A stretch of 64,000 nt of DNA, taken from the NCBI GenBank assembly GCA_913058255.1, contig CAJXQU010000008.1, positions 32,479 through 96,478 of the forward strand. The letters run 5' to 3'. The stretch comes from an uncultured Pseudomonadota bacterium (GTDB lineage Bacteria > Pseudomonadota > Gammaproteobacteria > CAJXQU01). Under the pieces are notes generated by a model. That model did no database searches. It saw only the letters and a program-made list of their open reading frames with translations, and was not told the DNA's origin. Below are positions 18,039 through 38,652 of this stretch, one piece after another. Numbering within the stretch: position 1 is the stretch's first letter; every line of letters starts with the position of its first letter. The position numbers were made by a program, and so were the translations under genes.

Positions 18039-18303
18039 TACTACAATAATCATCACCTTCATCACCCAATTAATGAAAATCACGTTTACTTTTCATTAAT
18101 ATAAATTCAATATATTTCTTATATTTATCATAAGGATACGGGGTATAATGCCAACCAAAATCAAACCAAACCTTACAGCCCCAATCATATCTGTATTTCT
18201 GGCAAAGATATTGCTTAATGCCTTAATACGTTATTAATAACGTGACCTAATTACAACTGTAATGTTGTTTTTTTGATACATAAAACCAAAGGGGTGTATA
18301 GAA

Positions 18304-19569
18304 ATGAAACATAAACTAAATATGATGGCGGCAGCATTACCATTATTGCTGGGTGCAAACATTGCACATGCTGACGTCGATTTATTTGGCGGCAAAGTAA
18401 AGGCAGGCGGCTACCTAGCACAACATTGGCAATCTGCAATTGAAGTTAGTGGCGCTAATAGACAAAATGCAGCCGATGCAAGGCAAAACTCTGGCTTTCA
18501 ACGGTTGCGTGTTGGCTTATGGTTTTCTGCACAAATTAGCGATCGAGTTGGTGCGTTTATAGAAATTGCGGACGAGCCTAATGATTATGGAGCAGGTGAA
18601 CAGTTCAGCTTTGCTATGAATCAGGATCTGGCATGGATCGATTTAAAACTGACGGATAATGATATTCTCCGTGTTGGTAATGTTGTGGAAACAACCATGA
18701 ACTTTCTTCGCTATTCAGATGGCGCGTCCGTTCAAGGCAACCCTAACATTGGTAATGGTTTAGCTGATATGATTACTGCAACACACGGGATCTGGTTAAC
18801 TGGTGCCCATGATGCTTCATTTGGTAAATGGGATTATAACCTAACTCTAACCATCCCTTCTTTCGCCGACGCATTCTATGACGAAAGTGGTTATAACTAT
18901 GGTGCAAGAACTTCGATGACCACCAATAGTGGTTTTGGTATCGGCGCGGGTGTATTCATATTTGATGGCGATGTGGTCGGTTGTGCAACACCAACAACCT
19001 GTAAATTGGGTAACGGTGCAGCACAGCGTTCTTTAATGACTGTAGGTGATGGCGACAACTACCGAGTGGGCCAAAATGGACAAGGTACCCGCGCACAGGT
19101 AGCTGGTATCTTACCTGGGATTGATGGGCATGTTTGGCAGATTGATCTGATGTGGTCTGGTGATGCTGTTGGTGTACCATTAACGGTTCAAGCTTTCTAT
19201 GGTGAAGGTGAAGATGAATATAGCCATAGCACAGGATCTATGGCATCAAATGGTGGTGGTGACTTCAGCACAGTGGATGCGGAGCAAAGTTTCTGGGGAA
19301 TCTTTGGGAAGTATGCTATCAATGATAAGTTCTACGTATCTTCACGCTATCAGGTATCAACTAATGATACAGCTGGTGTCGGCGGTGAGAATGAAGTTGA
19401 TCGTCTTCAACTTACGGGTGGTTTCTGGATAAGTGACTCAACCTTGCTTAAGGCTGAATACGTCAAGCAGAATGAAGATGCTCAATCAGGTGGTGGTATG
19501 TGTAACCCTGCTGGTGCTAGCAGTTGTGACTGGGATGGCTTTGTCATGGAACTTTCTGTTTCGTTCTAA
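18304..19569 (+). CDS. Outer-membrane beta-barrel porin-like protein
   Basis: 421 aa. Signal peptide ...LLGANIAHA/DV, alternating Gly/aromatic-rich strands and a C-terminal aromatic signature ELSVSF. Confidence 0.7.
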   Translation: MKHKLNMMAAALPLLLGANIAHADVDLFGGKVKAGGYLAQHWQSAIEVSGANRQNAADARQNSGFQRLRVGLWFSAQISDRVGAFIEIADEPNDYGAGEQFSFAMNQDLAWIDLKLTDNDILRVGNVVETTMNFLRYSDGASVQGNPNIGNGLADMITATHGIWLTGAHDASFGKWDYNLTLTIPSFADAFYDESGYNYGARTSMTTNSGFGIGAGVFIFDGDVVGCATPTTCKLGNGAAQRSLMTVGDGDNYRVGQNGQGTRAQVAGILPGIDGHVWQIDLMWSGDAVGVPLTVQAFYGEGEDEYSHSTGSMASNGGGDFSTVDAEQSFWGIFGKYAINDKFYVSSRYQVSTNDTAGVGGENEVDRLQLTGGFWISDSTLLKAEYVKQNEDAQSGGGMCNPAGASSCDWDGFVMELSVSF

Positions 19570-19598: not shown

Positions 19599-19627
19599 CC
19601 CTCACATCAATGTATGTGAGGGTTTTC
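19599..19627 (+). terminator. Rho-independent terminator
   Basis: CCCTCACAT-caatgt-ATGTGAGGG followed by TTTT, 30 nt after the porin stop. Confidence 0.7.
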
Positions 19628-19665
19628 CTGATCTGCTCCTGCTAATCCTATATCCTATCCTGTTC

Positions 19666-20200
19666 TGACCAAGTCCAACCGGACACATCTCTAAACTTAT
19701 TTTCAAGCTCAACTGGCAAACAATCACCATTAGTAGCTGTATGCAGTCTTTTAAGATTGTAATATTTCATATTGGCGGCCACATCAAGCTTTCATTTCAC
19801 TTCGTGTCGGCTGGACAACCTTATATAACCAATCATGCTTAATACTGCCGAAAAAGCGCTCACCCCCCAACAAGCACCGACATAGCACATACTGGCTCGA
19901 ATACCATAAGCAGTTATTCATTTACGATATGGCTTATTGATACACTGTTCCCCTCTTTCACTATAAAAAACGAGTCCCTTCGGTGATTGTCTAAGGTACA
20001 AACCTTCATCATCGCTTTGCTAATTAAACCCGTCGTCATACTTTATCCACATACCAACCAACGATACGCTGAGAATATAAGTCCATAACAACGGCTAAAG
20101 ACAACCAGCCATCATTGGTTTTTAAATAACTCACATCATCTGCCCAGACTTGATTCGAGCGACCTTTCCCCATCATTAGTACCAGCGCATTGTTCAGATT
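19666..20200 (-). mobile_element. IS3-family element 'X', 3' part (OrfB pseudogene plus right terminal repeat)
   Basis: Minus-strand fragments NALVLMMGKGRSNQVWADDVSYLKTNDGWLSLAVVMDLYSQRIVGW (DDE N-region) and MKYYNLKRLHTATNGDCLPVELENKF (OrfB C-terminus). The terminal sequence TGACCAAGTCCAACCGGACAC at 19666-19686 matches TGGTCTACTACAACAGGACAC (reverse complement of 22691-22711) at 14 of 21 positions. Confidence 0.6.
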
Positions 20201-21219
20201 CATAACACTTTATGCTGCTCTTTTTGTAAATCCAACCCGTGGTATATAGCCGAGTAAACTGTGAGCTCTGACATTGTTGTAATACTCGCGCCATTGGCCG
20301 ATTTCAACCCTAGCTTCTTCCAATGTTCTAAACCAATGTTGATGTCAGACATTCATTTCTAAACTTTCCATTAAGACTTTCAACAAACGCGTTCTGTGTC
20401 GGCTTTCCTGGCTGAATAAACCCAAGTTTTACTTATCGTTCTTTGCTCCAAAAGAACATCGCTTTGCTGGTGTATTCTGCGCCGTTGTCACACGTGATCG
20501 TATGAGGTGATTGTCGTTGTTCACTAATCGGCTCAAGGAGTCGAGCGACTTGCAGTCCTGTGATCGAAACAAAAACTAGTTTCCCCATCATTTCTTTGGT
20601 ATAAACATCGACAATATTCAGCACACGAAAACGCCTGCTGTACTAAGCTGATCGGAGACAAGTCCATCCACCAGCGTTCATTATCAGACGTTGGCAGAGC
20701 CATCGTTTGTCTGGGACGTTGCAAGTTTCTTTCGCTTTTTTGCACGCACTTGAAGCCCTACATCGGTATAAAATCGACAAGCTCGTTTCTTGTTGATGAC
20801 TAAACCTTCAATAATCCGTGTAATATCAAGTAACCGTAATGTGAATAATTAACGACTAGGACTTTCAGGCACGCTCTGAGCACCTGTTCATCTTTACCTT
20901 TCACTTTGTAACGATAATCTCAGCTAACCAACAGGCCATGCGCTCACTTGATATGATAATGTTCTATCAAGTGATGCACGATCGGCTTTACCTTATTTTT
21001 GAAAGCGCATCCTTCATGCCTTCGACTTCCAATAACTTGTCAGGCAACAATCTTTTCAGTTTATTGTTCTCAGGCTCCAATTCACGCAGACGCTTAGCTT
21101 CGTTCGCTTCCAGCCCTGCATATTTACTACGCCCAGTTATAAAAAGTACCTATATAAATACCCTGTTCACGACAGATGTCCTCGACCTTTATCCCTGATT
21201 TATTTTGCTTGATCTTTAA
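20200..21219 (-). mobile_element. IS3-family (IS407/IS2-like) element 'A', degenerate, inserted in X
   Basis: Minus strand shows an OrfA trace GIKVEDICREQGIYIGTFYNWA..AERLRELEPENNKLKRLL. OrfB traces are PTSDNERWWMDL, RFRVLNIVDVYTKEMMGKL...ITCDNGAEYTSKAMFFW, FIQPGKPTQNAFVES.NGKFRNECL and WREYYNNVRAHSLLGY. Multiple stops and frameshifts. The 5' end is cut by element C. Confidence 0.65.
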
Positions 21220-22467
<1,248 letters not shown>

Positions 22468-22711
22468 CTACAAATGTCGTTCCTAACTGCTCTGACTCTA
22501 CTTTGGCTTTACCAGCTATAGAATAAGTTTATCCGCCATACCTCATGATTTAAATGCTTTTAAGGCGGTATAGCCTTGCCCTAATATTAAGGCGACAGCC
22601 TCTTCTTTAAATGACGTACTGTACTTTTTTGGTTCACTTTTGGCTCGTTATGACACCTCTTGCTTTGAAACCTATTATCTCAAATTAAAAGTGTCCTGTT
22701 GTAGTAGACCA
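22468..22711 (-). mobile_element. IS3-family element 'X', 5' part (left terminal repeat plus OrfA N-terminal fragment)
   Basis: The minus strand starts with TGGTCTACTACAACAGGACAC and then reads KKYSTSFKEEAVALILGQGYTALKAFKS*GMADKLIL*LVKPK, the IS3 OrfA HTH pattern, interrupted by stops. Confidence 0.5.
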
Positions 22712-23165
22712 GATCACGTACCTTGAGTGTACAAAAATAGAATTTTATCATCCATAGAACTAAAACGATGTTAGTATTTTTTGACCTACCGAGGCTCAAA
22801 ACTACCTGCTCGGTCATGTGAAGTCTTAAGTTCAAACTAGCCTTCTTCGATTTGTAAGCTCTTCCGGCTGGCGGGTGGTGCCGTTACAGTTATTCTTTTT
22901 ATAATCAGGTTATTCATGCTTGGAAAAAGCAAGGTGGCCTTCCCGTTCAGCGTTTAGTGCTGCTTCAACGGTGATCTTCTCAGTATCTGTCGAAGCACAC
23001 TCAGCTCTACTTCAAAGTTTATGTTTTTAGCCACAGTTTCTGCAATAGCTTGCAGCTCATCTACTACCTACTCTCTCCTTTATTCAAGGGTCATGATAGA
23101 CAGTTTCACAATTTTATTTACGGCCTCTACTAGCACTGCTTCGGGAGAAGCCAGTTTAACCTGCT
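22712..23165 (-). pseudogene. IS256-family transposase, N-terminal fragment
   Basis: Minus strand reads ...ITVEAALNAEREGHLAFSKHE.PDYKKNNCNGTT... and MDDKILFLYTQGT, matching the IS256-family pattern LEAEL..HLGYEKHE....GN.RNG...PRDR.G.FEP...FDDKILSLYARGM. Several stops. Truncated at 22712 by element X. Confidence 0.6.
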
Positions 23166-23464
23166 TAATTTCTTAAAAGCCTTATTTGATATAATCATAT
23201 TATGTGAAATTTTCACTCCACATAATATGATTTCAACATGATTCTACTTCCATACTTATAGTATTAAAATCTATATTATCTCTATGAATGTCATTCTGCC
23301 TACAATCTGCCTTATTTGCTTTAAGAAGATTTTTCATAAGATCTATACCAACATCTTAAGAAGAATATGCCATCATCGAGGTAAATAAGAATGACTTAAT
23401 CCAATTAATCAATGAGCATTTGAATGCCAATATTAACTTTTTTACTCAGCTTCAAATATAAAGC

Positions 23465-24160
23465 TCACGATTGAAAAGGTAATATTTTCAAACTTATAAT
23501 TACTAAAGATGATGAGTTAGTAATTCCTTTCTCTATAGGGTCGTCTGAAGATCGGTAAAATTTTGATTTAACGATAATCCTTTTATCATCAATTGTTTTG
23601 CTACAAACCTGATCTATATAAACAGGACCAATTGCCTTATGCTTTCCCTGATCTGCTTCTGTTTCGTCTATACATTCCCACTGCGAACTACCATAACGTT
23701 TTTTTATGTTAGCTGACAAAAGATAGGCTTGTCTTTTGCTAAACGGAGAAGCATTTGGATCTGTATAAGCTTGCAGCCCTTGTATCACTCCCTCGTTATC
23801 TATCAAAACAGATAAATTAACTGGGTGTCCAGAAATTTTAGTACCGCTAAAACGTTCCCCTACCTCTGACCACTGATTATCTGAATGGTCATATTTTAAC
23901 CAAACCTGATAGATATTATGAGCATCAATAGAACACTCTAAAAACTCGCTTAGACTCTTAAGTTTCTTAGGAACCTTAGCAGGGCCTCCACAAGTAAAGT
24001 CTTTATAACGTTTTGCTGGCAATTCACTAACATGCATACCCAAGGATATATCACGAAGCTCTTTTGTTCTCTCAACAACAACTGCATCAGTAATATCTTT
24101 AGCGTAACTTCCTATTGAGAATGATAGAAGAACTGAAAGAAGAGGAATAATTAATTTCAT
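23465..24160 (-). CDS. Secreted hypothetical protein (231 aa), last gene of the PQQ-dehydrogenase operon
   Basis: Signal peptide MKLIIPLLSVLLSFSIGSYA/KD and five Cys residues. No motif I recognise. The 13-nt gap to the upstream cytochrome gene suggests co-transcription. Confidence 0.6.
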   Translation of the reverse strand: MKLIIPLLSVLLSFSIGSYAKDITDAVVVERTKELRDISLGMHVSELPAKRYKDFTCGGPAKVPKKLKSLSEFLECSIDAHNIYQVWLKYDHSDNQWSEVGERFSGTKISGHPVNLSVLIDNEGVIQGLQAYTDPNASPFSKRQAYLLSANIKKRYGSSQWECIDETEADQGKHKAIGPVYIDQVCSKTIDDKRIIVKSKFYRSSDDPIEKGITNSSSLVIISLKILPFQS

Positions 24161-24173
24161 TTTACAAGTCTCC

Positions 24174-25001
24174 TCACTCTCTTAAACTGTCACATTGACG
24201 TGATTTTTCGCCCCAATAAGCAGTGCACTGCTCCAAGCTAGGTTCTCCAGATCCTTTAATAACATTCACTACATAGTCAACAACAGCATCTAACTGTCTC
24301 TCACTAAGTAGTTTTCTAGCCCTAGGCGGTTTATCTTCACCAAACTCTTCTCCTGTTGTTTCGTAACAACTTACATCATCACCTTTGTAAACACTTCGTC
24401 CATGGAAAGGCATACCACTTGAAGGTCTACCACAACGAACAACTAGTTTAATTAATTCTGCATTCAAGACAGTTGTTCGCAATGACAAGGCTGCACCACC
24501 ATAACCACCGCCACCATCTCCATGCCATTTATGACATCCGACACAATTCGCTTGTTTATAAACTTTTTTACCTGCTGAGGTGAGTGCAGATTCTGTCTTC
24601 TTTTTTTCAACAATAACTCTAGCAAGAACATCTATCTTAAAAGAGGAGTCAGCACCTGTTACATCAGTAATCACTATAGACTCGTCATTGAAGATAGAAG
24701 GCATCACCTCCATGCCATCCTTTAGATTTTTTGCAATGATCTCATCGCCTTGTTTTAGAGAAAATCTTATTTTACTTTTATCTTCTGATTTCACATCCCA
24801 AACAAGTCTTATAGTTTCTTTGGGGTAAGTTATTGTAAATTTTTCACTACTTAATTGAGTTGATTCATTAACATCAACACTGATGATAAGTTTGTTTTCA
24901 AATTCAGGATTATTATGTGCGTGAAGTAAGGAAGGTATTAGTAACAAGGATATCGTTATTAACCTTATTACTGAAAAAGTATTAACAGTTATCTGTGACA
25001 T
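24174..25001 (-). CDS. Periplasmic c-type cytochrome with about 130-aa N-terminal beta-rich extension
   Basis: 275 aa. Signal peptide, single heme motif CVGCH followed by GDGGGGYGGAALSLR and GRPSSGMPFH, plus additional conserved-looking Cys residues downstream. It occupies the position of the dedicated electron acceptor (XoxG/cytochrome cL-like) after the dehydrogenase. Confidence 0.75.
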   Translation of the reverse strand: MSQITVNTFSVIRLITISLLLIPSLLHAHNNPEFENKLIISVDVNESTQLSSEKFTITYPKETIRLVWDVKSEDKSKIRFSLKQGDEIIAKNLKDGMEVMPSIFNDESIVITDVTGADSSFKIDVLARVIVEKKKTESALTSAGKKVYKQANCVGCHKWHGDGGGGYGGAALSLRTTVLNAELIKLVVRCGRPSSGMPFHGRSVYKGDDVSCYETTGEEFGEDKPPRARKLLSERQLDAVVDYVVNVIKGSGEPSLEQCTAYWGEKSRQCDSLRE

Positions 25002-25153
25002 ATTGTATTTTCCGTTTTTTCGTTGTTCTTATTTCTTTTACAAATTCAATATAATCATATTTATATGTATGAACAAAGTTAGAGCATGTTGAATTTTTTA
25101 TTACGTTATCTTAAGAAAGGAATCAGTTTTTTTCAAAAACCACCTTATAAAGA

Positions 25154-25183
25154 AATGCATAACCCTTTTCAAGGTTATGCATT
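25154..25183 (-). terminator. Intra-operon hairpin (attenuator or partial terminator) after the dehydrogenase gene
   Basis: 11-bp perfect stem AATGCATAACC-(8 nt)-GGTTATGCATT, 24 nt downstream of the stop at 25207. On the minus strand it is followed by TCTTTAT...GGTTTTTG. Confidence 0.45.
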
Positions 25184-25206
25184 CTATTATACTGCTAACT
25201 TACTAC

Positions 25207-26958
25207 TTATAGAGCAAAAACATATAGCGAAGAACCTGGCTCAAGTTTTTCCAGTCCTTTTGTGCTATCAACAAACCATTTAGGCCAAGCTCCGCCCAAA
25301 CCTACAAGGACAGCAACATATTGCTTGCCATCAACACTAAACGTCATTGGTGGTGCATTCAAACCGCCACCGACATTAAAGGTCCATAGCTCTTGTAATG
25401 TCTTACCATCCAATGCTGCTATAACGCCTTCTGGACGACTTGTAAAGACTAAATCACCACCTGTTGCAAGTGTTCCACCAAGGTTTGGATATTGCATAGC
25501 ATATTTTGCAACAACTTTACCTGTATCTGGATCGACAGCCTTAACACTACCAACAATTGGCTCATGCTGGCTAGGACCACCACCTGTCCACCATTCTCTA
25601 TGTTTATGAGTACCTTCGACCGTATCTTTAGCTGTCATTGTATTACAGCTTTCGATAACAGGGATATACCATAAGTGCAATTCAGGGTTATATGAAGTTG
25701 GTGGCCAGTTTTTACCACCCATATTACCTGGGCAAGAGATCCCTACCTTAGTCGCACGATTAGGTGCTGTGCCTTTTGCATAGAGTTGTACATCCGATTT
25801 AGGATCATAAGCTAAAGGTCGACCTGTTTTTGGATCAAGACCTGGAGTCCAAGTCATTTTATCAACGAAGGCTTCGCCCCAAACAAATTCACCTGTTGCG
25901 CGGTCAAGTGCATATGCATAACCATTTCGATCAGCATGCAACATAACCTTACGCTTTTTACCTTTGTACATGATATCTACAAGCGTATTTTCGTTTACAC
26001 CATCATAGTCGTACGGATCATTTGGAGTGTACTGATGGAACCACTTCAATTTACCAGTATCTGCATTCACAGCGACTGTACTGTTAGTGTAAAGATTGTC
26101 ACCTGGTCGATATTCAGGATCCCAATCAGGTCCAGGATTACCAACGCCCCAAAGGATCAAGTTAGTATCAGGATCATAAGAACCTACAACCCAAGTTGAA
26201 CCACCACCATTCTCCCATGCGTTATGGTCATCTTTCCAAGTTTCATGACCTTTTACACCTGGCTCGGCAATAGTTTTGAATCGCCAAACTTCTTTTTGAG
26301 TAGTCAGATCTGTTGCTGCCAACCAACCTCGAATACCATACTCAGCACCAGAAACACCTGTTATAGCCATATTTTTAACAATCAGTGGTGCTGCTGTAAT
26401 AGTTTCAGACACAGCTGGATCAGCTACTTGTCTTTCCCATACCTTCTCACCAGTTGTTTTGTTAGTAGCTATCAAACGTCCATCAAGAGTATGGGAAATG
26501 ACCTGGTCACCCCATAAAGCAATACCACGGTTATTAACACCGCAACAAGCTGTTGCTCCAGCCCAGTCTTTATCAACTTCTGGATCCATTTTCCACAATA
26601 AATCACCACCAGTCGGTGTAACTTTCAGAGCGTAGACTGCTCCCCAACCATCAGTAACATACATCATTCCATCTTCAACGATTGGAGTACCTTGTAGGCC
26701 ACCATGAGGCCAAATACCACCACCTTCGACGCCACCTAGTTGAAATGTCCAAGCAACATTAAGGTCTTTAACATTTTTCTTATTGATATTAGTCAATGGA
26801 GAAAATCTTTGTCCATCCAATGTTCTGTGATGAGACAACCAGTTTTGCGATTCACTATTTTTAAGCACTCTTTCCATAGTTACTTCAGCAGCTTGGCTTC
26901 CCGCACTTAACACCAATGCTGTAACAACAGTACAAGTTATTCTTTTTACATTAGACAT
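25207..26958 (-). CDS. xoxF: PQQ-dependent alcohol (methanol/ethanol family) dehydrogenase, lanthanide-type (XoxF/PedH-like) signature
   Basis: 583 aa. Signal peptide ...SAGSQA/AE. Vicinal disulfide ACCGVNNRG (Cys138-139). Eight-bladed propeller W-motifs. Active-site stretch NDPYDYDGVNE has Asp two residues after the catalytic Asp (D317-Y-D319, nt 26002-26010), the Ln-coordinating position that is Ala in MxaF. Confidence 0.88.
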   Translation of the reverse strand: MSNVKRITCTVVTALVLSAGSQAAEVTMERVLKNSESQNWLSHHRTLDGQRFSPLTNINKKNVKDLNVAWTFQLGGVEGGGIWPHGGLQGTPIVEDGMMYVTDGWGAVYALKVTPTGGDLLWKMDPEVDKDWAGATACCGVNNRGIALWGDQVISHTLDGRLIATNKTTGEKVWERQVADPAVSETITAAPLIVKNMAITGVSGAEYGIRGWLAATDLTTQKEVWRFKTIAEPGVKGHETWKDDHNAWENGGGSTWVVGSYDPDTNLILWGVGNPGPDWDPEYRPGDNLYTNSTVAVNADTGKLKWFHQYTPNDPYDYDGVNENTLVDIMYKGKKRKVMLHADRNGYAYALDRATGEFVWGEAFVDKMTWTPGLDPKTGRPLAYDPKSDVQLYAKGTAPNRATKVGISCPGNMGGKNWPPTSYNPELHLWYIPVIESCNTMTAKDTVEGTHKHREWWTGGGPSQHEPIVGSVKAVDPDTGKVVAKYAMQYPNLGGTLATGGDLVFTSRPEGVIAALDGKTLQELWTFNVGGGLNAPPMTFSVDGKQYVAVLVGLGGAWPKWFVDSTKGLEKLEPGSSLYVFAL

Positions 26959-27068: not shown

Positions 27069-27086
27069 TGCAATTAATACGCCAAA
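27069..27086 (-). promoter_or_regulatory. Sigma-54 (-24/-12) promoter of the PQQ-dehydrogenase operon
   Basis: The minus strand reads TTTGGCGTATTAATTGCA. This is TGGCGT-A-TTAA-TTGCA with exact GG-N10-GC spacing, about 100 nt upstream of the ATG at 26958. Confidence 0.6.
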
Positions 27087-27611: not shown

Positions 27612-29375
27612 CTAACAGCAATTACAGTATCTTTGATGCTTAGTTGTTTTTCCAATACCAGGGTTAAAAGTATTTGTAGGATCTAACTTTTGGTAAAAAT
27701 CTTTAAGCTCATTGGCAGCTTCATAAATATGCCCAACATTATGCTCGGCAGGATATTTAGCACCCTTATCATCAAACAGCTCCAACAATTGTTGTTTAAC
27801 TTCTTGCACACTCTCACCTTTTTTAACGAGATAATCCTGATGAAAAACATGACAGAAAAAATGTCCGTAATAAATAGGGCTAAATATCTTTGCCCGCAAG
27901 CTTTCGGGCAACTCTTCAACCCAATTAGTTTCATTCCTTTTTAGAGCAACATCTAGCGCCAGTATATCTTCAACTTTATCTTCATGCATTTGGTAATAAC
28001 GGATCGCTGCGCCAGCAACAGCAAAACGGTGCAACATAGCTTTTTCTTCTTCTTCTTTAGTACAGACAATATAGTGTCCAGAATTATTTTGGATGTCCTC
28101 GTTTGCATAAAACTTAGTTAAATACTGTGTTAATTCTTCGATACCATCATCACTCATTTTTATGATTAAGTGGTGAGCATACAATTTTTCCATCTCTAAT
28201 ATTCGTTGAGGCAAATGCTCTGGGAAAAGCGAACTAAGCCATTGCATGACTTTATCTGGAAAATCTTTAGGCATAAATGGCAGACGATTAAGTAATGTAT
28301 TTAAACGACCCCTAATCGCAAATAACTGCGGCATTCTGCGTGTACCCATAATGTTAATCGCTAAAAAAGTATCTTTACCATAAACTCGGGCTAAATTAAA
28401 AGCATCCCGATGAATGTACTCGCCTAAAACGGGCAAGTTTTTAAAGTTCTTAAGAACATGTCGTCTTATTTGGTTTAATTGGTTGGAGTCTTTTGTCCCT
28501 ATATAAAAAGTTTTACTTTTTTCAACACTTTTGAAAGTATCCAATCTAACAGCAAATACCGCCAACTTCCCTGCACAACCACTGCTCTCGAATAAACGCC
28601 TCGGATCTGCATTAAAACGTGCAGGAGAATCAGCATCAACATCTTTAACTCGTTTTTTATATTCAATGTCAGAAGCCATTGCATTATCATTCCAAACAAC
28701 ATCTGATAATGAAAAATTCTCATCCTGTAAATTGCTTAATATCTCTTCAGGCGTGTCTCCTAAAGAAATCCCCAAGTGATTAATTAGCTCTAAGTGGCCA
28801 TGTTCATTAACTTGAGCATATAAAGCTAACTCAGTATATGCAGGACCACGTTGAATAAGTGCACCCCCTGAATTATTAGCAACCCCTCCTATAACCGAGG
28901 CACCAATACACGACGAACCGATGACAGAATGAGGCTCACGTTGTAATGGTTTTAAAGCATTCTCGATTTGATATAACGTTGTGCCTGGAAAACTAATAAG
29001 TTGACGACCTTTCTTTTTTTCCTCAATTGTTTCTGTTTCCGCACCCAGTAATATCATCTGATCCATTTTACGAGTATTGATAACTATGACAGGTCGCTCA
29101 TAATCATAACCACTAGGGGTGGATCCTTCCGTTAGCCCTGTGTTAGCGGCTTGCATGATAATGATCGTTCGAGCTTCAACACAAACTTGTAATACACGCC
29201 AAAATTTCAGCAAATCATCAGGAAAAACAACCGCCGCAGCATCACCCTCTCCAGATCTAAACCCTGTTCTATAATGCTTTGTTTGTTCTAATGAAATAAG
29301 GATATTCCTTTTTCCAACAATATCCTCGAGAGTTAAAATAAATCCTGTATTTTCCATTTTTAAATTTTCAACCAA
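27612..29375 (-). CDS. dld: Quinone-dependent D-lactate dehydrogenase (FAD, membrane-associated)
   Basis: 587 aa. Collinear with E. coli Dld: YRTGFRSGEGDAAAVVFP, MQAANTGLTEGSTP, REPHSVIGSSCIGASVIGGVANNSGGALIQRGPAYTE. Confidence 0.9.
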   Translation of the reverse strand: MVENLKMENTGFILTLEDIVGKRNILISLEQTKHYRTGFRSGEGDAAAVVFPDDLLKFWRVLQVCVEARTIIIMQAANTGLTEGSTPSGYDYERPVIVINTRKMDQMILLGAETETIEEKKKGRQLISFPGTTLYQIENALKPLQREPHSVIGSSCIGASVIGGVANNSGGALIQRGPAYTELALYAQVNEHGHLELINHLGISLGDTPEEILSNLQDENFSLSDVVWNDNAMASDIEYKKRVKDVDADSPARFNADPRRLFESSGCAGKLAVFAVRLDTFKSVEKSKTFYIGTKDSNQLNQIRRHVLKNFKNLPVLGEYIHRDAFNLARVYGKDTFLAINIMGTRRMPQLFAIRGRLNTLLNRLPFMPKDFPDKVMQWLSSLFPEHLPQRILEMEKLYAHHLIIKMSDDGIEELTQYLTKFYANEDIQNNSGHYIVCTKEEEEKAMLHRFAVAGAAIRYYQMHEDKVEDILALDVALKRNETNWVEELPESLRAKIFSPIYYGHFFCHVFHQDYLVKKGESVQEVKQQLLELFDDKGAKYPAEHNVGHIYEAANELKDFYQKLDPTNTFNPGIGKTTKHQRYCNCC

Positions 29376-29866: not shown

Positions 29867-29883
29867 TTGGCATATTATTTGCT
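29867..29883 (+). promoter_or_regulatory. Sigma-54 (-24/-12) promoter of the aldehyde dehydrogenase / SoxYZ-like operon
   Basis: TTGGCATATTATTTGCT is TGGCAT-A-TTAT-TTGCT with exact GG-N10-GC spacing, about 80 nt upstream of the ATG at 29962 (RBS AGGAG at about 29947). It is nearly identical to the element at 27069-27086. Confidence 0.65.
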
Positions 29884-29961: not shown

Positions 29962-31470
29962 ATGAATGCAAACCTAAAAGAATCTATAAGCGAAAATGCT
30001 GTTACACAGTTTCTTGGTCAAGAAACTGTACCTATGTTTATCGGAGGCCAATTCGTATCCCCTGAAGGATGTAAGACGATCGATGTGGTTAACCCTTCAA
30101 ATGCAGAAAAACTTACTCAAATCTTCGCCGGAAATGCAACACAAGTCGATCAAGCATGCAAAGCAGCAGATAAGGCTTTTAAAACTTCTAACTGGGCGAC
30201 AATGCCCGTAGAACAAAGATCTGCTCTGCTCATGAAACTTGCCGATCTAATTGAGGAGAATGCAGAAACACTTGGGGCACTAGAATCTCTCGATGTAGGA
30301 AAACCTTTAGCTGGCGCTATTGAAGGGGAAATTCCTTTCTCAGCAGGTGCGTTTCGTTATTTTGCACAAGTAGCTCTTGATTACGATAAGTATAGTGATC
30401 CTTTGGATGTTGATGGCATGGATTCACATTATGTTCGTGTTCCCTACGGTGTATGTGGGTTTATCTTTCCATGGAACTTTCCATTTTTATTATTAGCGTG
30501 GGGTACTTCCGCTGCGTTAGCTGCTGGAAATACCGTCGTGGTGAAACCAGCCGAACTAACCTCTTTAAGTACTTTATATCTTTGTAAGCTGGTTAAAGAA
30601 GCAGGTATCCCTGACGGTGTATTTAACGTGGTCACTGGATATGGCGTTGACAGCGGTATGCCTATTGCTGAACATCCATTGGTTCGAAAAATGGCTTTCA
30701 CTGGCTCCCCAGAAGTTGGGCGTATGATTGCTGAGACCTGTGGTCGAAACTTACTCCCTCTTAAATTAGAATTAGGTGGTAAAGGCGCTGCGGTCATTTT
30801 TGATGATGTCGATGTTAAAGAAACAGCTAAAAGTCTTGCAGAAATAATTACATCAAATACAGGTCAAGTTTGTTGTACTGCTAGTCGGTGGCTAGTTCAT
30901 GAAAACATTTATGAAGAGTTCTCGTCCGAAGTGAGCAAAGCTCTGGGTAAAACAGTAATCGGCAACAGTCATGGCGATAGTACTCAGATGGGGCCTGTTG
31001 TAAGTGAAGTTCAACGTCAACGTATCTTAGGTTATCAACAGAAAGGGCTGGACCAAAATGCCGAACTAGTTGTAGAAGGAAAAGCTCTTTCTCCAGAAGG
31101 TTCTGAAGATGGATTTTATCTAACTCCATCACTACTCAAAGGTGATTCTGATAATATCTGCTTCAAGGAAGAAATTTTTGGTCCATCCGCATTCCTCGTA
31201 TCATTTAATGATGAAGATTCTGCGATAGATATAGTGAACAGCTCTAGCTACGGTTTAGCCAATAGCGTATGGACTAAGGATTTAGATCGTGCGAAAAGAG
31301 TTGCTGAGAAAATGGTTGTAGGTAATGCTTGGATAAATGCCCACAATGTTTTTGCATACGGCTTGCCTTATGGTGGTGTTAACCTCAGCGGAATGGGTGG
31401 AGGAGTGAATAGTCTTGAGACTTTTGAAGATTACCTCCGTGGGCAAACAGTCGCACGCCCTTTAACTTAA
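29962..31470 (+). CDS. NAD(P)+-dependent aldehyde dehydrogenase
   Basis: 502 aa. ALDH motifs FPWNFP, ELGGKG and catalytic Cys in GQVCCTASR. Similar in size and layout to AcoD/ExaC-type acetaldehyde dehydrogenases. Confidence 0.9.
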   Translation: MNANLKESISENAVTQFLGQETVPMFIGGQFVSPEGCKTIDVVNPSNAEKLTQIFAGNATQVDQACKAADKAFKTSNWATMPVEQRSALLMKLADLIEENAETLGALESLDVGKPLAGAIEGEIPFSAGAFRYFAQVALDYDKYSDPLDVDGMDSHYVRVPYGVCGFIFPWNFPFLLLAWGTSAALAAGNTVVVKPAELTSLSTLYLCKLVKEAGIPDGVFNVVTGYGVDSGMPIAEHPLVRKMAFTGSPEVGRMIAETCGRNLLPLKLELGGKGAAVIFDDVDVKETAKSLAEIITSNTGQVCCTASRWLVHENIYEEFSSEVSKALGKTVIGNSHGDSTQMGPVVSEVQRQRILGYQQKGLDQNAELVVEGKALSPEGSEDGFYLTPSLLKGDSDNICFKEEIFGPSAFLVSFNDEDSAIDIVNSSSYGLANSVWTKDLDRAKRVAEKMVVGNAWINAHNVFAYGLPYGGVNLSGMGGGVNSLETFEDYLRGQTVARPLT

Positions 31471-31656: not shown

Positions 31657-32526
31657 ATGAACTATTTAAAATTATTTCTCACATTTTACTTCTCAGTATT
31701 CACTCTAGTCTGCCATGGTGAAATTGCTTCAGATACTTCACAACAGAGTCCTTTGGAAGAGAACTCTTTAGAAGATTATTGGGAGAATAATATAAAGAAT
31801 ATTTATTTTTCTGGAAAAGATATTATTGTTGATTCAAATCAGGACATAATAAAGTTAGAAGCTCCATATAGAGCAGAAGATCCTGCCATAGTACCAATTT
31901 CAATCCAAACCATGGTAGCCACCAATGAAAGTTTTGACATCATTAAAATTCATGTTTTTATTGACAAAAACCCTTCTCCATTAGTCGGTGTTTTTAAATT
32001 TTCAGAACTCAAAAGTAAAGCAGACCTTTCAATGAGAGTTAGGGTGAATGAGTTTACCTATATTCGTGCTATCGCAGAAACAAGTGATGGGAAGTTCTAT
32101 ATGACGAAGAAATTTGTAAAGGCAAGTGGAGGTTGTTCCGCCCCTCCCCCTCCTTCTGCCGCCAATGCTAAGTTATTAGGTAAAATGCGGACTAGAATTA
32201 TGGGAAGACTTGCATTGTCAAAACCAAATTTAGTTCAATTCAAAATCAAACATCCAAACTATTCAGGTTTAGAAATGGTCGCCCCAGGAAGTGAAAAAAC
32301 AAAACAAAATTTCATAAAGAATATAAAAGTTAGCCTAAACGATAAAACTGTCTTAGATGCAGATTTGACATTCTCTATAAGCACAGACCCAAGTTTTAGA
32401 TTTTATATAACTCCTGAAAAAGAAGGAACTCTAGAAATTGAGGCTACGGACACAGCTAACAATATCTTCACTCATAGCCATGTTGTTGATCATAATAATG
32501 TTTCTATAGCCATTCCATTAAATTAA
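31657..32526 (+). CDS. Periplasmic SoxY/SoxZ-fusion-like thiol carrier (quinoprotein-dehydrogenase-associated type)
   Basis: 289 aa. Signal peptide. The N-terminal half ends in KASGGCSAPPPP (Cys160, nt 32134-32136), resembling the SoxY GGC swinging-arm motif but placed internally. It is followed by a Pro linker and a SoxZ-like beta-sandwich half. Paralog of 61565-62374. Confidence 0.65.
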   Translation: MNYLKLFLTFYFSVFTLVCHGEIASDTSQQSPLEENSLEDYWENNIKNIYFSGKDIIVDSNQDIIKLEAPYRAEDPAIVPISIQTMVATNESFDIIKIHVFIDKNPSPLVGVFKFSELKSKADLSMRVRVNEFTYIRAIAETSDGKFYMTKKFVKASGGCSAPPPPSAANAKLLGKMRTRIMGRLALSKPNLVQFKIKHPNYSGLEMVAPGSEKTKQNFIKNIKVSLNDKTVLDADLTFSISTDPSFRFYITPEKEGTLEIEATDTANNIFTHSHVVDHNNVSIAIPLN

Positions 32527-33367: not shown

Positions 33368-35305
33368 ATGACATATACGACAAAAAAAAATCTACATGTT
33401 GATAAAATCCATAGTACGGTTTCATGCATGGTTGATGCATCAAACATAGAGTCCATGGTTGAGCGTTCATGGCACCGATGCATTGACGACTATGGACTTT
33501 CACCATCTAGTACCCCCTTACCTCATGTACTTGAAAAAATTGAACTCCGTGAATGTGAAGAACATTTTTCTAAGGCAAGAGAAATCTCTCAAAACAGTGT
33601 AAATAAGCTTTATGAGTTTATCGCAGATATAGGCTACACCATATTACTCACTGATAATAATGGCATAACACTCGACTGCCGTTATAACCTTGATCACGAA
33701 AACACATTAAAAAAACTTGGCCTATATCACGGCACAAATTGGTCTGAAAATATCTCAGGAACAAATGGTATCGGAACTTGTTTGGTTGAAAAATCTCCTG
33801 TTTTAATTCGTACTGGAGAACATTTCTTTCATGAGATGTTCAATGCTACATGTACAGTTTCCCCAATTTTTGACAGTAAAGGAAAAATAATGGCGGCTCT
33901 TAATGCCACAACCCTTCTGCCAGAAACAGCCAATCAAAATAAACTTATTTCACGTCTTGTTGAACAACATGCGATGCAAATCGAAATTTTGAATTTCATC
34001 CAAGATTTCAGCGATCATTGGATATTAAAATTTTCTACCGGTAATGATCTTACGAATATTATAAAAACAGGTATTCTGGCTGTTAATCAAGATGGCGTTA
34101 TCGTGGCCGGCAATAGAAACTCCTACAACCTTCTCTATAAAAAGAACAGAGCCGACTTAAATAATAAGTATGTCCATGATATATTTAAATCGAACTTTTC
34201 AGCAATGATTGATAACCACAATAAAAACATACCACTAAGGCATCAACTTACTACATTAGAGCACCAAGATACCTTTTTCTTTGAGCTTAGAGCACCTTCT
34301 CTTTCTCAAAAAAATAGCTCCTCACCTTCAAAGCAAAAAAGCAATTCAAAAGTAAAACAACCTCATTGTAAAGAACACCCGCATTTATCTGATTTAGCTG
34401 GAAATGATATTCACATGCAAATCATAGGAGAGAAGATAAAGAAAGTTATTAACTTAGATTTAAATATTTTACTTATTGGTGAGACAGGATCTGGCAAAGA
34501 AGCACTCGCTAAAGCAATACATCATGCAAGTGAGCGGCAAGATCAACCCTTCATTGCTATTAATTGTGCAGCAATACCTGAATCATTAATAGAAAGTGAA
34601 TTGTTTGGTTATTCTAGCGGTACTTTTACAGGTGGTCTCAAAAATGGTATGAAGGGCAAGGTTCTTCAAGCTAATGGTGGAACCCTATTTTTGGATGAAA
34701 TTGGCGATATGCCATTACACCTACAAACACGTCTCTTACGTGTACTCTCTGAAATGGAAGTCATCCCACTTGGTGAAACAACGCCAACTTATTTAGATAT
34801 ACAGCTTATTTCAGCAACCAACAAAAGTATCACCGAAATGGTTAAAAATAATACTTTCCGTAAAGATCTATACTATCGACTTAACGGTATCACCTTAGAG
34901 ATACCATCATTAAGAAATCGAACAGACAAACGAGAGTTAATTGTAAATATATTTAATGAATATTCATCATTAAAATCGACCTTATTATCGGAAAGCTCGC
35001 TAGACATATTAGAACATTATCAATGGCCTGGAAATATTAGACAATTAATTAACGTTGCAAAGTACTCTGCTGCAATGTGCACATCAGGTGAAATACAAGA
35101 TGAGCATCTTCCTAAAGAAATACGCTCTAACAAATCAAAAAATATTAAAGAAAACTTACAACATTCAGAGTATGAAATTCTTATAAACTGTCTGAAAATC
35201 AATAAGTGGAATATTACAAAAGTATCCAAACAACTGGGGATCTGCAGAGCGACTGTGTATAGAAAAATTAATAAATATAAAATAATTTTTCCAAATGATG
35301 AATAG
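33368..35305 (+). CDS. acoR: Sigma-54-dependent transcriptional activator, AcoR-like (GAF-type sensor plus AAA+ plus Fis HTH)
   Basis: 645 aa. N-terminal ERSWHRCIDDYGLSP as in AcoR. Walker A GETGSGKE, sigma-54 contact loop ESELFGYSSGTFTGG (GAFTGA variant), DEIGDMP and C-terminal HTH ITKVSKQLGICRATVYRKINKY. The true start is probably an internal Met (aa 21 or 30). Confidence 0.88.
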   Translation: MTYTTKKNLHVDKIHSTVSCMVDASNIESMVERSWHRCIDDYGLSPSSTPLPHVLEKIELRECEEHFSKAREISQNSVNKLYEFIADIGYTILLTDNNGITLDCRYNLDHENTLKKLGLYHGTNWSENISGTNGIGTCLVEKSPVLIRTGEHFFHEMFNATCTVSPIFDSKGKIMAALNATTLLPETANQNKLISRLVEQHAMQIEILNFIQDFSDHWILKFSTGNDLTNIIKTGILAVNQDGVIVAGNRNSYNLLYKKNRADLNNKYVHDIFKSNFSAMIDNHNKNIPLRHQLTTLEHQDTFFFELRAPSLSQKNSSSPSKQKSNSKVKQPHCKEHPHLSDLAGNDIHMQIIGEKIKKVINLDLNILLIGETGSGKEALAKAIHHASERQDQPFIAINCAAIPESLIESELFGYSSGTFTGGLKNGMKGKVLQANGGTLFLDEIGDMPLHLQTRLLRVLSEMEVIPLGETTPTYLDIQLISATNKSITEMVKNNTFRKDLYYRLNGITLEIPSLRNRTDKRELIVNIFNEYSSLKSTLLSESSLDILEHYQWPGNIRQLINVAKYSAAMCTSGEIQDEHLPKEIRSNKSKNIKENLQHSEYEILINCLKINKWNITKVSKQLGICRATVYRKINKYKIIFPNDE

Positions 35306-36513: not shown

Positions 36514-37941
36514 ATGAAAATTCGCATCTGGCATAAACTCGCGCTTGTTTTACTGTTAACCACCACTTTAGTCATATCGATCGCTTTTGTTCTTGCACAG
36601 TTGAGCTTTCGACAGGACTTTAGTGGCTATATAAAAGGGCAACAAGAAAGACAAGTACAACTTCTGAGCGAACGGCTGGTCGAAAATTACGAACAAGCAG
36701 GCAGCTGGAGTTTTTTACGTAAAAATCCACGCCTGTTTCGATTAATCATTCGAGAATCATTTAGAAATGAACAGGCTACTTTTACAGCACCCCCAGTAAG
36801 ACATGAAAAACCTGTTCCTCCTTTTGATCCACCACCGCGGTTTCGACCACGCCATGCTTCACGGATGGCGATATTAGATCAAGATAAAAACAATGTATTA
36901 GGCTCTTTAGAATCTGGCCCATCAATTGAAGACTTTCCTATCAAATCTATGAGTAAAACGATTGGCTATATACGGATACGCTCCATTTCGAACTTAACCA
37001 ATAAACTCGATGAACGTTTTATAAAAAGTCAATTTCATTCATATCTAGGAATTGGTGTTATTGCCTTTTTCTTATCACTAATCGCAGCCTGGCTACTTTC
37101 AAACTACTTCCGTCGACGTTTTGTTGAATTAACTAAGATTGCAAATGATCTAACGGCCGGCCAGTTTGAACAAAGAATTAATATAACGCATAACGATGAA
37201 CTAGCAGACTTGGGGCGTAACTTTAATGTGCTTGCCGATACGCTTGAGAAAAATCGTTATTCTCAGAAACAATGGATTGCCGATATTTCACATGAGCTTC
37301 GTACTCCTTTGGCTATCCTATGTGGTGAAATTGAAGCATTACAAGATGGTATTCGTCCTCTTGATAAAGCCGCAATTAAATCACTCTCAGGTGAAGCATC
37401 CCATTTGAACTATCTTGTCAATGATCTCTACCAACTCTCTCTATCAGATTTAGGCAAGTTAGGTTATAAAAAATCTGTTATCGATCTAACTGAAATTCTA
37501 GATCGTGTGATTGCTCAGTATCATTCCAGGCTATTAGAGCATGATTTAAACCTTGAGAATCGGATAGAACAATTTAAACCCATATCTATTTTCGGTGATG
37601 AACAACGCTTTATGCAATTGTTTTCTAACTTGATAGACAATGCGATTAAATATACCAATCAAGGTGGCTTAATTATTATCGATTTAGAACAAACAGATCA
37701 CAATATTCTTCTCACTTTTGAAGACTCTACCCCAGGCCTCTCCACTGAAAACTTATCCAAGATGTTTAATCGTCTCTATCGAGCAGAACCATCTCGCAAT
37801 CGAAACACTGGAGGTGCTGGACTTGGCCTAGCTATAGCATCTGCCATTATCGAGGCTCACGGTGGAAAGATTAGCGCCTCAGACTCGATGCTAGGAGGTA
37901 TCAAGCTTTCTATACAACTGCCTCTCTATACTCATCCCTAA
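36514..37941 (+). CDS. Sensor histidine kinase (BaeS/CpxA-like; TM-periplasmic-TM-HAMP-HisKA-HATPase)
   Basis: 475 aa. Two TM segments, H-box ISHELRTPLA, N-box DNAIKYT and G-box GGAGLGLAI. Confidence 0.88.
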   Translation: MKIRIWHKLALVLLLTTTLVISIAFVLAQLSFRQDFSGYIKGQQERQVQLLSERLVENYEQAGSWSFLRKNPRLFRLIIRESFRNEQATFTAPPVRHEKPVPPFDPPPRFRPRHASRMAILDQDKNNVLGSLESGPSIEDFPIKSMSKTIGYIRIRSISNLTNKLDERFIKSQFHSYLGIGVIAFFLSLIAAWLLSNYFRRRFVELTKIANDLTAGQFEQRINITHNDELADLGRNFNVLADTLEKNRYSQKQWIADISHELRTPLAILCGEIEALQDGIRPLDKAAIKSLSGEASHLNYLVNDLYQLSLSDLGKLGYKKSVIDLTEILDRVIAQYHSRLLEHDLNLENRIEQFKPISIFGDEQRFMQLFSNLIDNAIKYTNQGGLIIIDLEQTDHNILLTFEDSTPGLSTENLSKMFNRLYRAEPSRNRNTGGAGLGLAIASAIIEAHGGKISASDSMLGGIKLSIQLPLYTHP

Positions 37942-37959
37942 CAACGAGAAGAGGACATA

Positions 37960-38652
37960 ATGACAACTAAACAACACGCTCTCATCATTGAAGATGAACC
38001 AAAAATAGCGCATATTTTGATCGACTATTTACAAGCTAATCATTATAAAACGACATGGCTTAATAATGGTTTGGACGTTATAAAATGGTTAGACGAAAAC
38101 TCAACAGATATTATCTTGCTAGATCTCATGCTGCCGGGTAAGGATGGCATAGAAATCTGCCAAGAAGTACGAGAGTTTTCCCAAGTTCCTATCATGATGA
38201 TAACCGCAAGGGTTGAAGAAATTGATCGCATTCTTGGTATGGAAATTGGTGCTGATGATTATATGTGTAAACCATTCAGCCCACGAGAAGTCATCACGCG
38301 TGTAAAAGCACTACTTCGCCGAGCGAATTTTTCCGCACAAACATCCTCACTTCAATCAAAATTAAGCTTAAATACTGAAAAGTTTGAGGCAAAGTTTCAT
38401 GATCAACTGCTCGAACTAACTCCCGTAGAATTTCGCCTGCTCGATGTTCTATCAGCAAAGCCCGGCTTTGTCTTTTCTCGTCAAAGGTTGATGGATCATG
38501 TCTATGATGACCACCGTGTGGTCAGTGATCGAACCATGGATACACATATAAAAAATCTTCGCAAAAAACTCCAGAGTGTCAGAGGAGATGCAGAAATGAT
38601 ACGTTCAATATATGGCATCGGTTATAAATTTGATGACAGCAACTTAATCTAA
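37960..38652 (+). CDS. OmpR-family response regulator (BaeR/CpxR-like)
   Basis: 230 aa. Receiver domain (DEP...LLDLMLPGKDG...KPF) and winged-helix output (LTPVEFRLL...IYGIGYKF). Confidence 0.9.
   Translation: MTTKQHALIIEDEPKIAHILIDYLQANHYKTTWLNNGLDVIKWLDENSTDIILLDLMLPGKDGIEICQEVREFSQVPIMMITARVEEIDRILGMEIGADDYMCKPFSPREVITRVKALLRRANFSAQTSSLQSKLSLNTEKFEAKFHDQLLELTPVEFRLLDVLSAKPGFVFSRQRLMDHVYDDHRVVSDRTMDTHIKNLRKKLQSVRGDAEMIRSIYGIGYKFDDSNLI

Follow-up and report, generated by a model that had tools for sequence, protein, structure and literature searches.

Gene content of the locus

The DNA analysed here is a stretch of 64,000 nucleotides (nt), referred to as the window, from an uncultured bacterium of the gammaproteobacterial lineage CAJXQU01 (GenBank assembly GCA_913058255.1, contig CAJXQU010000008.1, positions 32,479 to 96,478 of the forward strand). 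Its minus strand carries three consecutive open reading frames (ORFs), which code for a pyrroloquinoline quinone (PQQ)-dependent alcohol dehydrogenase (ADH) of 583 amino acids (aa) with a signal peptide at about residues 1-23 (P0001, 25207..26958), a cytochrome c of 275 aa (P0002, 24174..25001), and a secreted accessory protein of 231 aa that matches no Pfam family (P0003, 23465..24160). An earlier reading of this DNA, here called the original prediction, had regarded the first gene product as a XoxF/PedH-like dehydrogenase with non-canonical partners; the three ORFs were found at the coordinates and on the strand that it had given. We consider it rather likely that the three genes represent a conserved operon for periplasmic alcohol oxidation, which was probably acquired horizontally. 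Whereas the combination of dehydrogenase and cytochrome follows a classical design, the accessory proteins are undescribed, and P0003 apparently has a new fold.

Active site and phylogeny of the dehydrogenase

P0001 matches the TIGR03075 model (PQQ-dependent dehydrogenase, methanol/ethanol family) over its full length with 548 bits (cut-off 480), and PF01011 with 233 bits. The protein has the C138-C139 ring, E206, N274, the catalytic D317, D319 and R344. Of these, the cysteine pair as well as E206, N274, D317 and R344 (metal and PQQ ligands) line up with their counterparts in PedH. The vicinal cysteines, as well as the two aspartates at nt 26002-26010 (D317, nt 26008-26010; D319, nt 26002-26004), are present exactly as the original prediction had described them. 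Its view of D319 as a lanthanide-type residue is borne out by a HMMER alignment, in which D317-Y-D319 coincides with the D-F-D motif of PedH (PDB 6zcv). In the clade to which P0001 belongs, every sampled member (13/13) has the Cys-Cys ring, Glu, Asn, D-Y-D and Arg. By the accepted sequence criterion, an extra Asp two residues past the catalytic Asp, P0001 is classified as a lanthanide-type enzyme.

When P0001 was compared with enzymes of solved structure, the highest score was obtained for PedH (365 bits), followed by a type II quinohemoprotein ADH (325 bits), ExaA (304 bits), XoxF (296 bits) and MxaF (about 266 bits). Genuine representatives from genomes of the same genus score far higher, i.e. 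866 bits for a PedH-type enzyme (anchor L024) against PedH 6zcv and 919 bits for a XoxF5 (anchor L028) against XoxF 6dam. These two anchors, other same-genus paralogues and the dehydrogenases of all related loci were used to compute a maximum-likelihood tree, in which the XoxF anchors are of the XoxF5 type only. P0001 is located inside a 13-member clade (support 96/99), the sister of which (100/100) comprises more divergent PQQ dehydrogenases that lack the Cys-Cys ring. The tree separates the 13-member clade from the groups of PedH-type, quinohemoprotein and XoxF5 enzymes, and it places the PedH-type anchor with a PedE-like D-F-S paralogue at a long distance from P0001. Within the clade, identities to P0001 amount to 63-86% across Gamma- and Alphaproteobacteria, versus about 40% or less outside. 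Among 338 plasmid records with a PQQ-ADH, the Skermanella plasmid pTT6-1 codes for an enzyme with 64.6% identity to P0001, the next best match having 40.6%.

Because P0001 reaches only 296 and 365 bits, compared with 919 and 866 bits for true orthologues, and because the tree separates it from both anchors, we assign it neither to XoxF nor to PedH/ExaF, but to a separate clade. Accordingly, XoxF identity and PedH/ExaF orthology were both rejected on the scores and the tree. The XoxF framing of the original prediction is thus not upheld, and its remark that 583 aa is short for XoxF is beside the point for an enzyme that is not a XoxF. In the phylogenetic placement that it had called for, P0001 fell into a clade whose sampled members all have the lanthanide-type Asp, and grouped with neither the XoxF5 nor the PedH anchors.

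The host genome has a pqqC gene and two XoxF5-like genes with the D-Y-D motif (HDEWDYDGINE), pieces of which are found on four contigs (C5:3-947, C10:3-947, C17:10-501 and C21:33989-34477). Both genes are split at contig ends; presumably, the assembly was broken by the two near-identical copies. Since pqqC and the two D-Y-D genes are present, PQQ supply and lanthanide use are plausible in this host.

Conservation and co-occurrence of the gene set

The original prediction had made its case depend on a conserved linkage of the two downstream genes with the dehydrogenase gene, and this linkage is kept across two proteobacterial classes. The order dehydrogenase, cytochrome c, third protein was found in a Logan contig (L001), Methylophaga sp. 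NORP93 (L003) and Neptuniibacter pectenicola (L004), in three alphaproteobacterial-like genomes (L012-L014), in the loci L015 and L022, and in Methylobacterium (L019), Bradyrhizobium (L020), a metagenome-assembled genome (MAG) of the Geminicoccaceae (L018) and the Skermanella plasmid pTT6-1 (L023). Altogether, the third gene lies beside a PQQ dehydrogenase gene in 15 of the 16 loci examined and is usually coupled to the cytochrome gene. Wherever they are on the same strand, the cytochrome and third genes overlap or are at most 15 nt apart (13 nt in the window). The arrangement is unchanged in L021, which has a more divergent dehydrogenase. In a Bauldia sp. MAG (L017, GCA_026126025.1; 1-8443), four tandem PQQ dehydrogenases are followed by a protein of 480 aa in which the third-protein domain is joined to pentapeptide repeats. 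The dehydrogenases of that locus have no Cys-Cys ring and show H-E-H/K-D instead of D-Y-D. A narrow alignment search of genome contigs matched only the Methylophaga NORP93 locus.

We also surveyed an even sample of 401 Pseudomonadota genomes, with a threshold of E<=1e-150 for the ADH clade. The clade and the third-protein profile were found in exactly the same four genomes and neither of them in the other 397, so for these two genes the co-occurrence check that the original prediction had proposed turned out in its favour. The naive chance of such a coincidence (4/401) is about 1e-9, where the four genomes represent three genera only. The cytochrome and the third protein are therefore the standard partner set of the P0001 clade; the partners that had been called non-canonical are its regular ones.

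Six other species of the host genus have neither the third protein nor a P0001 orthologue (best match 43%), and debris of an insertion sequence (IS) of the IS3 family lies directly downstream of the cassette. For these two reasons, the cassette gives the impression of an accessory module gained by horizontal transfer. The region 19600-23200 of the window contains few intact ORFs, and IS3-family transposase fragments occur there on both strands, including an rve core (21910-22191) and an OrfA-like helix-turn-helix part (21251-21475). In L001, a transposase fragment likewise follows the cassette.

The third protein

The gene of P0003 begins 13 nt past the cytochrome stop codon, and the protein carries a signal peptide. 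No match was found in Pfam, NCBIfam or the PDB sequences. Of the original description as a secreted protein without a family and with five cysteines, the first two attributes hold, but there are four cysteines (C57, C76, C163 and C186), so that the protein is not really Cys-rich. In a 51-member alignment of the family, the invariant positions are G41, C57, C76, T107, C163 and C186. Since all four cysteines are invariant, two disulfides are suggested for the periplasmic protein.

While a word-based homologue search returned just one relative of P0003, an exhaustive profile search retrieved 332 cluster representatives at E<=1e-3, none of which has a Pfam domain of its own. Identities across Alpha- and Gammaproteobacteria are only 24-35%. 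The AlphaFold model, computed from a 41-sequence alignment, is a confident one and mostly beta with a few helices (predicted local distance difference test score, pLDDT, 86.7; predicted template-modelling score, pTM, 0.80). A Foldseek search of the PDB with this model revealed no fold relative (best E 0.13, TM below 0.3), and the only match in BFVD, a weak one, was to a phage 'lipoprotein' of uncharacterised function (TM 0.42-0.51). Profile searches and structure prediction, which the original prediction had recommended, thus left both P0003 and the N-terminal domain of the cytochrome without a family, and P0003 also without a PDB fold match. We rejected P0003 as a homologue of XoxJ/MxaJ, as it matches no MoxJ or solute-binding-protein model and its predicted fold is mainly beta.

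The P0003 domain also occurs in fusions. One type comprises proteins of about 500 aa with C-terminal pentapeptide repeats (PF00805), which were absent from P0003 itself in a Pfam scan. Another is a 335-aa form with a PCuAC-like domain that is encoded in a dehydrogenase-cytochrome-fusion operon (L018); of the 15 proteins in its 90%-identity cluster, most are likewise 335 aa long. Judged from its genomic context, P0003 is a clade-specific accessory protein, and most likely it serves the dehydrogenase and its cytochrome in a structural or maturation role. Its place in the operon is the one held by XoxJ/MxaJ in methanol dehydrogenase operons, although it is unrelated to these proteins.

The cytochrome and its N-terminal HNNP domain

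The description of P0002 as a single-heme cytochrome with the motifs CVGCH, GDGGGGYGG and GRPSSGMPFH proved correct. The heme motif CVGCH spans residues 153-157, and the Pfam matches (PF13442, Cytochrome_CBB3, 33.8 bits, cut-off 27; PF00034, Cytochrom_C, 33.4 bits, cut-off 21.3) are confined to residues 141-246. According to these matches and the alignment, the heme domain covers residues 141-275 (24174..24581, minus strand). It has a GGGGYGG loop, the invariant M197 as likely axial ligand, and four further invariant cysteines (C190, C212, C259 and C270). By these features P0002 is classified as a mono-heme class I c-type cytochrome.

The cytochrome is unusually long. Relatives of P0002 are normally 160-190 aa in length, consisting of a signal peptide and the heme domain, and only about 25 out of 935 have the long form. 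The signal peptide of P0002 (residues 1-28; 24918..25001, minus strand) has a predicted cleavage site ..LHA|HNNP. Between it and the heme domain lies a beta-sandwich domain, here named the HNNP domain (residues 29-135; 24597..24917, minus strand). The N-terminal extension without a family that had been noted earlier is thus real, but its length is about 105-110 aa instead of about 130 aa. No Pfam match was found on residues 1-140.

The only strictly conserved element of the HNNP domain is the N-terminal His-Asn-Asn-Pro. In 23/23 aligned sequences, A/S|HNNP is invariant and lies directly past a signal-peptidase-like site; if the predicted cleavage holds, mature P0002 would start at His29. A second conserved metal ligand was not seen in this 23-sequence alignment. 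AlphaFold predicts a beta-sandwich with pLDDT values of 82-95 over residues 34-130. Foldseek searches against the PDB yielded generic jelly-roll matches only, the best of them to the C-domain of STIV A223 (E 1e-3). In a comparison of the HNNP domain with PCuAC-like proteins, hhalign detected no homology (probability 0.4%). As Foldseek found only generic jelly-rolls and hhalign was negative, CopC, PCuAC and cupredoxin were rejected as identities of the domain.

Across the loci, the HNNP domain is fused to the cytochrome in four cases and encoded by a gene of its own in two (L015 and the Skermanella plasmid locus L023). A PCuAC-like protein (PF04314) is present in six loci without HNNP, encoded either upstream of the dehydrogenase (L012-L014, L019 and L020) or as part of the fusion with the third protein (L018, 7001-8008); no locus has both. 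Since the two modules are mutually exclusive, analogous roles are suggested. The HNNP domain is small and probably binds a metal or a partner by means of its N-terminal His. The PCuAC-like proteins of the cassettes have an invariant R-C-P and a second Cys, and keep the canonical Cu(I) motif only as H-x-M, of which even the Met is missing in the PCuAC-like part of the L018 fusion. Their metal site is probably non-canonical.

Regulation and neighbouring genes

A sigma-54 type -24/-12 element (TGGCGTATTAATTGC; 27070..27084, minus strand) precedes the start codon of the dehydrogenase gene by 112 nt. Searching the window for the sigma-54 pattern gave ten matches versus 1.75 expected, and three of them are correctly oriented, namely before the ADH gene, an aldehyde dehydrogenase gene and a porin-like ORF. 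The dehydrogenase and cytochrome genes are separated by 205 nt, and this spacer contains an inverted repeat (25146..25191, minus strand) with 19-nt arms that are 84% complementary. An attenuator inside the operon is one possible role, a hairpin that stabilises the mRNA another; the repeat was not among the calls of the terminator scan. We sought evidence of expression in public sequencing runs, none of which contained the window stretch.

On the plus strand follow a gene for an NAD(P)-dependent aldehyde dehydrogenase (29962..31470; PF00171, 483 bits), which is preceded by its own sigma-54 element at 29868-29882 and remained below the cut-offs of the ExaC, StyD and BADH models, a gene for a quinoprotein-associated SoxYZ-like carrier (31657..32526; TIGR04557, 226.9 bits, cut-off 140), and a gene for an AcoR/DhaR-like sigma-54-dependent activator (33368..35305). 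Among NCBIfam models, the latter matches PrdR/DhaR best, below the equivalog cut-offs. It probably regulates all three sigma-54 promoters. In Neptuniibacter, an analogous activator also adjoins the cassette, and the locus contains an aldehyde dehydrogenase. With aldehyde dehydrogenase, SoxYZ-like carrier and sigma-54 activator, the neighbourhood is ped/exa-like and not xox-like.

Several further genes are found nearby. The porin-like ORF (18304-19569, plus strand) codes for 421 aa with a signal peptide and a C-terminal Phe. It has no Pfam or NCBIfam match, looks like an outer-membrane porin, and is preceded by a TGGC-N7-TTGC element of the sigma-54 type (18200-18214). A gene for a membrane-type D-lactate dehydrogenase (Dld; 27612-29375, minus strand; NF008387, 899 bits) adjoins the cassette in the window, and in Methylophaga NORP93 (L002/L003, 1-4196) the cassette adjoins lutABC and a lactate permease gene. 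These neighbours may reflect shared ancestry or hint at a route via 1,2-propanediol, lactaldehyde and lactate. Just past the sigma-54 activator lies a BaeS/BaeR-like envelope-stress two-component pair (36514-38652, plus strand).

Proposed function and alternative explanations

On the basis of family knowledge, motifs and synteny, we propose that P0001, as a lanthanide-type PQQ dehydrogenase, would oxidise an alcohol to the aldehyde in the periplasm and pass the electrons to P0002 as its dedicated mono-heme cytochrome c, from which they would reach the respiratory chain. The neighbouring cytoplasmic aldehyde dehydrogenase would then oxidise the aldehyde, likely as the second step of the pathway, and the operon would be expressed from its sigma-54 promoter under the control of the nearby AcoR-type activator. 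For the third protein, a part in the structure or maturation of this pair is most likely. The HNNP domain is a fourth, optional module, which in other lineages is free-standing or replaced by a non-homologous PCuAC-like protein.

Several points weigh against this interpretation. We identified no published experiment on any member of the P0001 clade in the literature. Lanthanide use requires the extra Asp, but there is no proof that this residue suffices, and some PQQ-ADH types are not uniform in the metal that they use (PMC11996626). P0002 has no detectable sequence relative among the solved XoxG, cL and c550 cytochromes, its best PDB match being NorC (E 0.047), so its pairing with P0001 is argued from synteny. 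The role of P0003 is in turn argued only from its association with the other genes, as neither an acidic cluster nor a CxxC motif is conserved in the protein and no cofactor site of another kind can be recognised. In the Bauldia locus L017, no cytochrome gene lies between the dehydrogenases and the third-domain fusion. In L016 (5203-6492), the cytochrome and third genes are adjacent but divergent, and there is no PQQ dehydrogenase within 6 kb, which may point to the cytochrome, instead of the enzyme, as the partner of the third protein. In view of these two exceptions, its direct partner is ambiguous. Finally, the 2x2 table for the 401 genomes may miss divergent copies, as the first-pass filter scored few candidates per genome.

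The framing chosen earlier, in which XoxJ was lost from a lanthanide methanol dehydrogenase system of the XoxF type and unusual partners were taken up, draws on the D-Y-D motif and Cys-Cys ring of P0001, on a host that bears XoxF genes and is a probable methylotroph, and on the cytochrome c gene that comes next, like xoxG in xox operons. We regard it as very improbable, since a genuine XoxF5 of the same genus reaches 919 bits against 6dam where P0001 has 296, the tree root separates the XoxF5 group from the P0001 clade, the neighbouring genes are ped-like, and the host already has two XoxF5-like genes. No better are the prospects of P0001 being a PedH/ExaF orthologue (PQQ-ADH type 2b of Keltjens) with an ExaB/PedF-like cytochrome c550, which would make the system already characterised in kind. 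Although PedH is the best PDB match (365 bits) and ped-like genes lie near the cassette, the real same-genus PedH-type enzyme, at 866 bits, is found far away together with its PedE-like D-F-S paralogue, P0002 matches no solved cytochrome significantly, and the third protein has not been reported for PedH loci. Equally hard to sustain is the idea that the third gene is merely a passenger coding for a secreted protein with no functional tie to alcohol oxidation. The missing catalytic or cofactor motif in P0003 and the IS debris at the cassette would fit. Against it, the gene co-occurs perfectly with the ADH clade over 401 genomes, holds the same place in both Alpha- and Gammaproteobacteria, where it nearly overlaps the cytochrome gene, with only 24-35% identity, tracks the wider dehydrogenase group (100/100 in the tree), and is fused to other periplasmic modules within such loci.

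A question of a different kind is whether the P0001 clade has a name already. Possibly it equals one of the types named by Keltjens et al. 2014 that are biochemically uncharacterised; type 6a or 6b, as found in clade C Methylobacterium, is the lead. This could well be the case, even though we lean slightly against it; it is compatible with the three-gene operon proposed here and concerns naming and novelty only, in that only the accessory genes would be new. The third-protein family occurs in several Methylobacterium species and in Bradyrhizobium, with the complete triad in L019 and L020, and type 6a and 6b enzymes of Methylobacterium have been described as putatively lanthanide-dependent, type 6a being uncharacterised (PMC8561711, PMC7356819). 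On the other hand, close homologues are absent from the Methylobacterium plasmids in PLSDB, though Adh4 and Adh6 of strain 22A are plasmid-borne. If the clade were type 6b, ExaF of M. aquaticum 22A, which is La-responsive and supports growth on ethanol, would be a characterised relative.

Going beyond the operon as such, one may envisage that the third protein and the HNNP/PCuAC-like module constitute an unrecognised accessory system of one group of lanthanide-type PQQ dehydrogenases. Taken with all its parts jointly, we consider this proposal rather doubtful. If it were true, the third protein, with its new fold and two disulfides, would be a maturation or docking factor that replaces XoxJ/MxaJ, and the N-terminal His of the HNNP domain would form a metal site resembling a mono-histidine brace. 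P0002 would then be a two-centre electron carrier with heme and metal, or a metallochaperone would be tethered to it. As a further possibility, the aldehyde dehydrogenase and D-lactate dehydrogenase genes next to the cassette, together with lutABC in NORP93, suggest that the gammaproteobacterial cassette may feed a route from 1,2-propanediol via lactaldehyde and lactate to pyruvate.

To our knowledge, most clades of PQQ dehydrogenases beyond XoxF and PedH/ExaF have never been studied, and we are aware of little on their maturation and respiratory wiring. The window offers a module that unites a well-separated and uniformly lanthanide-type dehydrogenase clade, a strictly co-occurring protein family that has neither a Pfam model nor a solved structural relative, and two small modules of the periplasm that apparently replace each other, the HNNP domain and the PCuAC-like protein. 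As new partners in maturation, metal handling or electron transfer, its parts are candidates that can be put to the test. Knock-outs are feasible in carriers that can be cultured, namely Neptuniibacter pectenicola, Methylobacterium, Bradyrhizobium and Skermanella. Lanthanide-dependent PQQ dehydrogenases are reported to be abundant and highly transcribed in the ocean (PMC11996626).

Comparison with known systems

The closest parallels are found with PedH of P. putida KT2440 (6zcv/6zcw) and ExaF, which are lanthanide-dependent PQQ ethanol dehydrogenases of type I. Like these, P0001 has about 580 aa and the build of a soluble, periplasmic PQQ propeller with eight blades, a Cys-Cys ring, Glu/Asn/Asp metal ligands and the extra Asp, and a cytochrome gene comes next. 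The aldehyde dehydrogenase and the SoxYZ-like carrier nearby are also reminiscent of the ped cluster (PMC12997753). In contrast, P0001 is only about 40% identical to PedH (365 bits, compared with 866 bits for a true PedH-type enzyme) and falls into a separate clade. Whereas the partner of PedH/ExaF is a cytochrome c550, P0002 is unrelated in sequence to solved cytochromes, and neither the third protein nor the HNNP domain has been described for ped or exa clusters.

With XoxF-XoxG-XoxJ, the cassette shares the operon logic of dehydrogenase, dedicated cytochrome c and periplasmic accessory protein, as well as the lanthanide-type Asp. It differs in that P0001 is outside the XoxF group and P0003 has no MoxJ or solute-binding match. 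The absence of XoxJ asserted by the original prediction is confirmed, since there is no XoxJ/MoxJ-like gene in the window and the sole TIGR03870 match of the genome, on contig C5, stays below the cut-off at 90.5 bits. The gene order that it had taken as canonical, xoxF-xoxJ-xoxG, is in general xoxF-xoxG-xoxJ.

A further secreted accessory protein of unknown role beside a PQQ-ADH is PedD (PP_2673 / PA1981). This uncharacterised pentapeptide protein is encoded beside pedE/exaA, and its truncation impairs growth on alcohol (PMC12997753). The resemblance extends to the pentapeptide repeats in the relatives of P0003 of about 500 aa, one of which directly follows the four PQQ dehydrogenases of L017. 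P0003 itself, however, has no such repeats, and the profile of its family matched only the genomes with the ADH clade among the 401 Pseudomonadota.

As regards the small modules, PCuAC proteins (PF04314), which are copper chaperones of the periplasm, are likewise small secreted beta-sandwich modules, and PCuAC-like proteins hold the equivalent place in the alphaproteobacterial cassettes. The HNNP domain differs from them in its hhalign probability of 0.4%, the lack of a specific PDB fold match and the absence of a second visible conserved ligand, and the PCuAC-like proteins of the cassettes keep only part of the Cu(I) motif of canonical PCuAC. Metal sites formed by an N-terminal histidine are known from CopC, YcnI and the histidine brace of the lytic polysaccharide monooxygenase (LPMO) type. 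With cleavage at the predicted site, the mature HNNP domain would resemble these proteins in beginning with an invariant His.

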